Shown here piece by piece: positions 1 through 3,000 of a DNA stretch of 64,000 nt. Made by a program: the position numbers. Where the stretch lies: the IMG/VR virus record IMGVR_UViG_2718218360_000002. The stretch is one strand, 5' to 3'. Source of the DNA: a virus (taxonomy: Duplodnaviria; Heunggongvirae; Uroviricota; Caudoviricetes). Each line of letters opens with the position of its first letter. Position 1 is the stretch's first letter.

Positions 1-3000
1 GTGAACTGGAAGCCGGTAAGGCCGCCACGGCGCAGCCGGTGAAACAGGCCGGTAACGGGAATGTGGCCGCGGTGGCTTCTGCGCCGGTGATCCGTGTGGA
101 GCAGAAACTGGATAAGGGGATTGGCTTCGCCCGCTTTGCCAAATCGCTGGCTGCGGCTAAAGGCGTCCGATCTGAAGCCCTGGAAGTGGCCCGTCGTCAG
201 TATCCGGATGACAGTCGTCTGCATCATGTCCTGAAATCGGCAGTGGGCGCGGGGACCACCACGGATCCGCAGTGGGCAGGCAGCCTGTCTGAATATCAGG
301 AATACGCACAGGACTTTATTGATTACCTGCGTCCGCAGACCATTATCGGGCGATTTGGTCAGGGCGGGATCCCTGCACTTCGTCAGGTGCCATTCAATAT
401 CCGTGTGCACGCCCAGGTGTCCGGCGGTGCTGCCGGCTGGGTGGGTGAGGGTAAGGCAAAACCCCTGACGAAGTTTGATTTTGAATCCATCACCTTCAGT
501 CATGCGAAGGTGTCGGCCATTGCGGTACTGACGGAAGAATTGATCCGTTTTTCCAGTCCGGCTGCTGATGCACTGGTCCGTAATGCGCTGGCGGAAGCGG
601 TGGTGGCGCGTCTGGATACAGACTTTGTGGACCCGAAAAAAGCCGCAGTGGCAGATGTCTCCCCGGCGTCCATCACCCATGATGTGAAGGGCACGGCATC
701 AACCGGTAACCCGGATGCGGATGCCGAGGCTGCGTTTGGACAGTTTGTGGCAGCAAACCTGCAGCCCACCGGTGCGGTCTGGCTGATGTCCAGCACGAAT
801 GCCCTGGCACTGTCCATGCGTAAAAATGCGCTGGGTCAGAAGGAATACCCGGACATGACCCTGCTGGGTGGCTCCTTCCAGGGGCTGCCGGTGATTGTCT
901 CCCAGTACGTGGGTGACCAGCTGGTGCTGGTGAATGCCCCGGATATTTATCTGGCGGATGACGGCGGCGTGGCAGTGGATATGTCCCGCGAGGCATCACT
1001 GGAAATGCAGTCTGAGCCGGGCGGCGACAGTACCACGCCGTCCCCGGTGGAGCTGGTTTCCATGTTCCAGACAGGCAGCGTGGCCATCCGTGCGGAGCGC
1101 TGGATCAACTGGCGTCGTCGCCGTACTGCGGCGGTGGCGGTGATCACCGGAGTGAACTACGGCAGTGCGTCCGGCGGCTGAGTCTGATAAGGAGGACGGG
1201 AGGCGTGCGCCTCCCGTAACAGGTTATGGCAAAGATCCGATATCTGCAGGGCACGCATGATGCCCGGGCCGGGGATATCCGTGATGTGGCACAGCCGTGT
1301 GCGGAGGTGCTGGTTCGCCTGGGAAGGCGGAGTACATCACGGTGCGACGTCCGGCAGGTCAGAAAAAGAAACGTGATGCGGAGCATGGCGAATGTGGAAC
1401 CTTTTACGGCGAACCCGAAAAAACCAGAAATCAGGACGTGACGTAAGAGAGGCGGGCTGGACCAGCCTGTTTCAGGCGGTGGCTGAGCCCTTTTCCGGCG
1501 CCTGGCAGCAGGGCGTGAAAGCCGATCCTGAAGCCGTCCTCTCCTTTATGCGGTGTTTGCATGTATTTCGCTGATATCCCAGGATATCGCCAAAATGCGG
1601 CTGCGTCTTATGCAGACGGATGCGCATGGGATACGCAGGGAAACGCGCCGGGGGGATATTGCCCGCCTCTGTCGTCGTCCCAACGCCCAGCAGAACCGCA
1701 TCCAGTTTTTTGAACTGTGGCTGAACGCCAAACTGCGTCATGGCAATACGGTGGTGCTGAAAATCCGTAATGCCCGGGGGCAGATCAAAGAACTGCGTAT
1801 TCTGGACTGGAGCCGGGTTGAACCTCTGGTGGCGGATGACGGCGAGGTGTTCTACCGCATCACGCCGGACCGGAACTGCGGGATCACGGAGGCGGTGACG
1901 GTGCCTGCCCGGGAAGTGATCCACGACCGGTTTAACTGTTTTTTTCATCCGCTTATAGGATTGCCGCCGGTGTATGCCGCCGGGCTGGCGGCCACGCAGG
2001 GGCATCATATTCAGGAAAATTCGACGTCTTTTTTCAGAAATGGCGGCAGGCCGTCCGGGGTGATTGAGATCCCCGGCAGTATTACGGAAGAAAATGCGAA
2101 AAAACTGAAGAGCAACTGGGACAGCGGGTATACAGGCGAAAATGCGGGGAAAACGGCCATTCTGAGCAACGGGGCAAAATACAACCCCACGACGTTTTCA
2201 CCGGTGGATGCGCAGACGGTGGAACAACTGAAGATGACCGCTGAAATTGTCTGTTCGGTGTTCCGTGTCCCGGCCTACAAGATTGGCGTGGGACAACCGC
2301 CTTCCAGTGACAACGTGGAGGCGCTGGAGCAGCAGTATTATTCCCAGTGCCTGCAGACGCTGATTGAGTCCATTGAACTGTTACTGGATGAGGCGCTGGA
2401 AACGGGGGAAAACGAGAGTACAGAATTTGATGTCACCACGCTGCTGAGAATGGACAGTGAGCGGCGCATGAAAACGCTGGGGGATGCGGTGAAAAATACG
2501 CTTCTCACGCCCAATGAGGCCCGTAAACGGGAGAACCTGCCGCCCCTGGCCGGCGGTGATGCACTGTATCTTCAGCAGCAGAACTACAGTCTGGAGGCGC
2601 TGTCCCGTCGTGATGCCCGTGAGGATCCGTTCGCGTCTGCCGGGAAAACAGTTTCATCACAGCTGCCTGACGGCGCATCTGACGGTAATAAGGCAATCAG
2701 TGAAACAGAGCATGATGCGGTGAAAGCGATGTTCAGGGGGGATACTGAGAAAATGACGGAACGGGAACTGTCCATTATTCGTGCACTGGGAGAAGAATTT
2801 TCCACAGTGCTGGCGGATTTACAGCGCACATTTGAGGAGAAAATAGCCGCGCAGGCACAAACGTTTGAAGAAAAACTGGCTTCTCAGTCTGTGGTATTAC
2901 AGAAGTGCGTGACGGGTGATGATGTGCGTCCGATGCTTGAGCAGATGGTGAAAGAGGCAGTGAGCCATATTCCTGTTCCGCGCGACGGTCGTGACTACGA

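Follow-up and report, generated by a model that had tools for sequence, protein, structure and literature searches.

Genomic Setting and Duplication of the Head Module

The window considered here is the whole 64,000-nucleotide stretch of DNA, an Escherichia coli O157:H7-type chromosome segment in which two lambdoid prophages lie near each other:

1 to about 19 kb: prophage 1, from the capsid gene through the tail fibres
Between prophages 1 and 2: effector and IS region with nleA, nleG, espM1, ISEc8 and an ompW fragment
Integrase at 32327-33457 through the window end: prophage 2

The window contains the head and tail-proximal module twice. By self-BLAST, positions 1..6889 (copy 1) match 57116..64000 (copy 2) across 6,892 columns, of which 3 are mismatches and 10 are gaps. 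The module runs from TerS and TerL through a 645-aa prohead protease/major capsid fusion, a 73-aa ORF and the portal to the head-tail connector, the head-gene organisation described for Sakai prophages Sp6, Sp9, Sp10 and Sp12 (PMC2669165). In both copies, the portal sits in this head-morphogenesis module beside the terminase, protease/capsid and connector genes, in the same order. The neighbours of the portal in prophage 2 are:

54074-54637: TerS
54634-56295: TerL
56359-58296: protease-capsid
61084-61410: head-tail connector

The Split Portal Gene of Copy 1

The features of copy 1 that surround and form the portal gene are:

39..1181, + strand: 3' part of the protease/major capsid fusion, the gene being cut by the window start (ORF list; Pfam Phage_capsid; identical to the 645-aa capsid gene of contig L001)
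1226..1441, + strand: small ORF between capsid and portal (phrog_829), 73 aa if intact
1392..1574, + strand: portal 5' fragment, frame 3, 60 aa, beginning where the 861-aa portal is annotated to begin in L001
1547..1548: missing-C site, CCTTTCATG in the intact allele and CCTTTATG in copy 1
1553..3976, + strand: portal remainder, frame 2, GTG start, 807 codons equal to residues 55-861 of the intact protein

The split gene encodes the HK97-type portal of a lambdoid prophage of the Sp6/Sp9/Sp10 type in E. coli O157:H7. The intact portal is an 861-aa protein (2,586 nt, WP_015994249.1) in L001 (strain ECP19-2498), where its start ATG corresponds to window position 1392; it begins MWNLLRRTRK and overlaps the end of the 73-aa ORF. 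The same 861-aa allele is found in phage YYZ-2008 and many O157:H7 prophages. A reading of the sequence alone had described a frame 3 ORF at 1392..1574 that ends where a frame 2 ORF opens with a GTG at 1553, and both ORFs are present as it described them. The upstream ORF has an authentic ATG, preceded by GGAG 8 nt upstream, and encodes 54 native residues followed by 6 out-of-frame codons and a TGA. The downstream ORF contains the HK97-type portal core and a long C-terminal extension, which includes 3.7 tandem copies of a 162-bp (54-aa) unit at 2918..3510 on the + strand (Tandem Repeats Finder; self-BLAST).

The same reading had suggested a -1 lesion near 1547, and copy 1 indeed has one C fewer at this site than every homologue examined. 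Alignment to intact portal homologues places the missing base between 1547 and 1548, such that copy 1 has no single uninterrupted portal ORF and the gene is broken at codon 54/55. From 1548 onward, copy 1 is identical to L001 and phage YYZ-2008. Over window positions 1182-4000, the YYZ-2008 DNA that includes the portal (ACI32389.1, the same sequence as WP_015994249.1) is identical to copy 1 apart from two 1-base deletions (99.9%; 2,821 nt in the phage versus 2,819 nt in the window). The gene order of this reference (terminase, protease-capsid fusion, 73-aa ORF, portal, connector) is that of the window; its portal is a single 861-codon ORF, whereas that of copy 1 is divided at codon 54/55. The second of the two deletions lies in the small ORF at 1226..1441, where a private 1-base loss (A3 to A2) after 1323 shifts the frame and leads to a 71-aa aberrant product. 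The intact 73-aa form of this ORF is annotated in L001, Sakai, 7409 and strain 113. The intact-form sequence reads GGGAAAGG at 1323/1324 and CCTTTCATG at 1547/1548.

Position of the Break in the Portal Fold

The break falls inside the conserved HK97-portal core. Relative to every homologue examined, the claim that a 1-bp shift deprives the copy 1 portal ORF of a conserved N-terminal segment is correct. The TIGR01537 (portal_HK97) profile scores 349.4 bits against the intact allele and 338.2 bits against the 807-aa window ORF (cutoff 112), while the scores for PF04860 are 272 and 268.6 bits, respectively (cutoff 39). Profile positions 2-343 of TIGR01537 align to residues 45-388 of the intact protein; the 807-aa ORF enters the profile at position 13, with the loss of positions 1-12. 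The broad portal family phrog_12 aligns from residue 2 of the intact portal. The solved portals 9lbn (E = 1e-28) and HK97 8cez (E = 4e-20) align from residues 43-45, across the break, and themselves extend about 50 residues further toward the N-terminus. The HK97-family portals of known structure (HK97 gp3, 8cez, and gp1, 9lbn) share their core with residues 45-388 of the portal described here. By contrast, these solved portals (393-431 aa) are without the C-terminal extension of about 470 aa and its 54-aa tandem repeats, and their N-terminus is not severed by a frameshift as it is in copy 1.

A functional role for the split, whether through a shortened portal initiated at GTG 1553 or ATG 1595 or through joining of the two ORFs by a programmed -1 frameshift, is almost certainly not the explanation. 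The Pfam Phage_portal domain is almost whole in the 807-aa ORF (profile 4-321 of 321), and a -1 slip at UUU-AUG would restore the frame. However, the split arrangement occurs in no homologue, all of which are single-frame, and the break lies inside the first conserved block of TIGR01537 and within the alignments to solved portals. The sequence-only reading had allowed for a naturally shorter portal initiated at GTG 1553 or an internal ATG, a proposal that does not hold, as the full-length members inspected all start with MWNLL. Intact homologues that begin at the equivalent of 1553 were not found, all having the upstream segment, and the 807-aa members of the databases are repeat-number variants with a complete N-terminus. 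No Shine-Dalgarno sequence is apparent on reading the sequence before GTG 1553, and ATG 1595 is preceded by only a weak AGGA 10 nt before it. A natural start at GTG 1553 is thus rejected on account of the MWNLL starts, the family models and the solved portals that align upstream of the break. Likewise, a programmed -1 frameshift is rejected, since the junction (CTC-TCC-TTT-ATG) has no X-XXY-YYZ slippery heptamer and the homologues are single-frame.

Distribution of the Deletion at 1547

The deletion at 1547 is private to this sequence. Searched against complete E. coli genomes, an 80-mer centred on the lesion matches 932 of them at 1,498 places; no match is identical, all have the extra base, and the best ones span 81 nt and therefore include the C. 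A lesion-specific 40-mer has no match in IMG/VR, JGI metagenome contigs or GTDB species representatives; 58 IMG/VR contigs, in contrast, contain the intact 41-mer (deletion in 0/58 of these copies). The C is also present in the orthologous prophage copies of strains 7409 and 113, and the ORFs derived from the lesion are absent from a collection of 15 billion proteins. With regard to the surrounding DNA, complete RefSeq genomes match at no more than 99.3% over 1-19000 and no more than 99.0% over 3600-12000. The exact tape-measure protein is found only in CP040314.1, in which the portal is intact at 833 aa. In a collection that includes the resequenced EDL933 (NZ_CP008957.1), no record matches the window without extra bases, the best match being 99.9%. 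The 2001 EDL933 record contains ambiguous bases (PMC4132626); the window has none.

One ENA metagenome scaffold encodes an identical 60-aa product but was rejected as independent confirmation, as its own deletion is another one, located 3 nt upstream (CTCC to CTC), and hence a separate event. The scaffold allele is 98.8% identical, with 30 substitutions and 1 gap. That the 60-aa peptides agree is a coincidence of codon degeneracy.

A real and very recent loss-of-function frameshift, that is, ordinary prophage decay, is an unlikely account of the deletion. Genuine portal frameshifts are known in this group of phages. The portals of Sakai Sp3, Sp6, Sp9 and Sp12 are defective, and complementation allows defective prophages to be packaged nonetheless (PMC2669165). 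In RefSeq, portals labeled as frameshifted are found at the orthologous loci of strain 7409, where both portals have a G7-to-G6 frameshift near the 3' end, and in FDAARGOS_293, where the portal has a G6-to-G5 frameshift. The ENA scaffold adds a natural-looking allele (30 substitutions, 1 gap) with a -1 change three bases upstream, and the remainder of the window is accurate, with several of the lesions lying outside homopolymers. Against this account, the deletion is absent from 1,498 + 58 other copies. The Sakai portals (Asadulghani et al. 2009, PMC2669165) are of the same phage type and host lineage and are likewise disrupted; however, the genome they come from was finished with care, and frameshifts like theirs, G-run changes for example, are found again in related strains, whereas the 1547 deletion is in no other genome. 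As to the marks of a genuine pseudogene, a frameshift relative to an intact allele is present, and neither inheritance by relatives nor substitutional divergence was found.

Lesions of the Copy 2 Portal

The second portal gene of the window is as follows:

58508..61087, + strand: portal copy 2, with the C present at the site equivalent to 1547 and 7 other indel events

The extra C that had been noted in copy 2 (cctttCatg) is present at 58663, and EAVLSFHAVFACISLIS is read in one frame locally. Copy 2 is nonetheless far from intact, as its own indels fragment the portal gene into at least 6 ORFs. These indels are the loss of A after 58633, of G at 58765, of C at 58793, of CG at 58879 and of GT at 59081, the gain of C at 59828, and a G6AT to G5ATT change at 59852. 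Copy 2 has no private substitution save one that resembles an indel pair. The proposal that each copy carries a different lesion is correct, with the 1-base deletion of copy 2 (the A missing after 58633) positioned 30 nt upstream of the extra C. The lesion sites differ between copies 1 and 2 and no lesion is common to both; thus, a consensus built from both copies gives the intact allele.

The lesions of copy 2 were also considered as private in every case, but this was rejected: the G6-to-G5 change at 58765 is common to FDAARGOS_293 and other RefSeq genomes, and the G-run equivalent to that at 59852 is polymorphic among IMG/VR copies. The G-run changes of copy 2 at 58765 and 59852, being seen in other assemblies, may be natural.

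An Indel-Only Cluster in an Otherwise Accurate Sequence

Compared to L001, window positions 1-7000 have 0 substitutions and two 1-base deletions (A after 1323; C at 1547). When both copies are expressed in copy-1 coordinates, all of the portal-stretch lesions fall within 1323-2742 (1.42 kb). The window has 8 private indel events, two in copy 1, five in copy 2 and one at 30486, such that 7/8 are within 2 x 1.42 kb of the about 60 kb assessed (binomial P = 4e-9). Private substitutions number 0 in the portal stretch and at most two, possibly private, in the window as a whole. The indels of the stretch are biased toward deletion (8/9, the compound change of copy 2 aside). Several lie outside homopolymers, namely the loss of C at 1547 and the deletions of CG and GT. 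By eye, only 3/8 of the lesions adjoin a GATC or CCWGG motif (Dam/Dcm), the methylation context considered as a possible ONT signature.

Indels make up roughly one tenth of spontaneous mutations in E. coli mutation-accumulation data. If this proportion holds, 8 indels among 8-10 private changes have a probability of 1e-8 to 4e-7. The near-identity of the window to sequenced relatives further implies that the expected number of genuine private indels is far below one. Natural alleles of the same 1.5 kb look different, with up to 41 substitutions and 0 gaps. A public contig (L066) has indel-only noise of the kind seen in the window, with 0 substitutions and 5 homopolymer indels in the same stretch.

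Outside the portal stretch, the window is nearly free of private change. Compared to strain 113, the region 11.2-34 kb has 0 substitutions (over 23 kb) and one 1-base deletion, and compared to strain 7409, the region 14.3-58.6 kb has five substitutions and two indels. From 11.2 to 58.6 kb, there is one private indel and no demonstrably private substitution:

30486..30487: loss of one A (A3 to A2), which truncates an nleG-like DUF1076 effector gene; the sole private indel beyond the portal stretch

This deletion occurs in 0/514 complete genomes. Two other suspected private differences, in the length of a T-run at 52649 and in a group of three substitutions near 42.7 kb, proved to be natural polymorphisms with 100% matches elsewhere.

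The cluster weighs further against ordinary decay. The 1.42 kb that contain the deletion at 1547 have 6 further private indels and 0 private substitutions, whereas neutral decay predicts about 10x more substitutions than indels and no such clustering. Selection does not explain the further hits, as one frameshift already inactivates the gene. Independent decay of both copies, which the sequence-only reading had implied, is therefore doubtful, the lesion being private and set within an indel-only cluster of technical look.

A real cluster could also arise from a patch of error-prone synthesis, for example Pol IV-type -1 frameshifts made during recombinational repair or gene conversion between the modules, which is very improbable. 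The deletion bias, the confinement to about 1.4 kb and the presence of lesions in both members of a recombinable exact repeat are consistent with such a patch. However, no substitutions accompany the indels, gene conversion should spread lesions and the copies share none, and nothing comparable is observed in more than 1,500 other copies; a technical cause accounts for the same facts more simply. Such a patch would amount to a natural 'mutation shower', likewise very improbable, in which a -1-biased repair burst during module recombination would have inactivated the portals of both tandem prophages in one lineage.

Proposed Origin of the Deletion

The C deletion at 1547 is probably an uncorrected consensus error of the source assembly and not a mutation of the bacterium, as judged by comparison of the sequence to its homologues. 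A consensus error accounts for the pattern far better than natural decay does, because the indels are private, free of substitutions, clustered and located at different sites in otherwise identical copies. Two marks of such an error are found, in that the variant is absent from independent copies and the indels are clustered without substitutions. Residual indel errors in the long-read or gap-closure consensus of repeated prophage regions are a known artefact. The lesions of the window resemble this artefact in that they are private and deletion-biased, consist of indels alone and cluster in a multi-copy repeat at copy-specific sites. They are unlike it in that some lie outside homopolymers and almost no errors are seen elsewhere in the window. 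The clean sequence outside the stretch (one private indel in about 50 kb) indicates that the assembly is not generally poor, and since several lesions lie outside homopolymers, no single platform's error signature fits cleanly.

The proposed mechanism is that a locally low-quality consensus, in a repeated and poorly covered stretch, would leave indels uncorrected. Possible causes include contig ends or joins, or single-pass gap-closure reads, inside the repeat. Alternatively, long-read errors may have persisted where short-read polishing was defeated by multi-copy mapping. With a consensus error, the organism would have an intact 861-aa portal that starts from ATG 1392, and the 60-aa and 807-aa ORFs would be artefacts.

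Implications for Prophage Function

Whether it arose as a technical error or as a routine pseudogene of a defective prophage family that is already known, the lesion calls for no new mechanism. If it is an artefact, the 60-aa and 807-aa ORFs, the frameshifted 73-aa ORF, the fragments of copy 2 and the nleG-like truncation should not be taken as prophage decay, and the lesions would be unusable for judging whether the prophages are inducible.

If the lesion is real, the copy 1 gene would be a null or near-null portal allele. A lack of a ribosome-binding site at GTG 1553 and the weakness of the AGGA at ATG 1595 suggest that no functional portal would be made. Packaging would then depend on the paralogous portal of a sibling prophage supplied in trans, as for the defective Sakai prophages (PMC2669165). 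The gene would add one more defective portal to the already described pool of O157:H7 defective prophages, and the biological weight of the split portal is small.

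Private lesions in and outside the portal stretch

The portal stretch (1323-2742 in copy-1 coordinates) carries private lesions, i.e., changes found in no other genome searched, in both copies of the duplicated head module, and one further private indel lies outside the stretch:

1323-1324: copy 1, second private 1-base deletion (GGGAAAGG to GGGAAGG), within ORF 1226..1441
58633-59853: copy 2, seven indel events in the portal gene (58508..61087), at least six ORFs resulting
30486-30487: private 1-base deletion (A3 to A2) adjoining GATC, affecting ORF 30518..31027

The deletion at 1323-1324 lies 224 nt upstream of the portal lesion at 1547/1548 and shifts the frame of a conserved 73-aa ORF (phrog_829) of the capsid-portal interval; the missing A is present in copy 2 and in every other genome examined. 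In the portal gene of copy 2, five of the seven events are private, and the other two (58765 and 59852) are G-run changes that are also present in other public assemblies. The sole private indel of the window beyond the portal stretch is that at 30486-30487, which leaves an nleG-like DUF1076 effector gene with 169 instead of 216 codons and occurs in none of the 514 complete genomes having this single-copy region.

Frameshifts in related portal and tail genes

Changes in G-run length are recurrent in the portal genes of public copies (the loci L007, L004, L005 and several of IMG/VR), at window-equivalent positions 1650, 2736-2741 and 3861 (a G6-to-G5 change at two of these sites, G7-to-G6 at the remaining one). 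They explain why RefSeq annotates portals as 'frameshifted', both orthologous copies of strain 7409 among them. These G-run changes are either genuine polymorphisms due to slippage or homopolymer errors of long-read sequencing.

A metagenome-assembled relative of 98.8% identity (L006, 5320-5330; ENA scaffold LEEM22-1_SAMEA8899637_METAG-scaffold_2594) has a 1-base deletion of its own, three bases upstream of the portal deletion of the window. The 60-aa truncated product is identical to that of the window, though the deletions differ; thus, an exact protein match calls for caution and should not be taken as evidence of the same DNA lesion.

The tail-tip/host-specificity gene J is likewise split:

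12917..14092 and 13969..16389: gene J, two overlapping ORFs

Unlike the portal lesions of the window, this frameshift is common to strains 113 and 7409, where it is annotated likewise, with strain 7409 having an IS3-family insertion at this place in addition.

Mosaic structure of prophage 1

Prophage 1 (window 1-19000) is a mosaic, with a different public genome matching each block at 100% identity:

1-7000: strain ECP19-2498 at 1.77 Mb (in the portal region, phage YYZ-2008 carries this allele too)
7-10 kb: CP040314.1
11.2-34 kb: strains 113 and 7409

Over 1-19000 as a whole, none of the complete RefSeq genomes reaches more than 99.3%. Either natural recombination among prophages produced the mosaic, or the assembly joined paralogous prophages into a chimera.

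C-terminal extension of the portal

The portal of this phage family extends ~470 aa past the HK97 core:

2918-3510 and 3511-3976: C-terminal extension

Within the extension, a 162-bp (54-aa) unit occurs in 3.7 tandem copies, and the copy number differs among strains; FRIK strains have one unit fewer, and the 807-aa variants keep the full N-terminus. A CBM_5_12 match at the end of the extension is sub-threshold (20.3 bits vs. a cutoff of 26.2).
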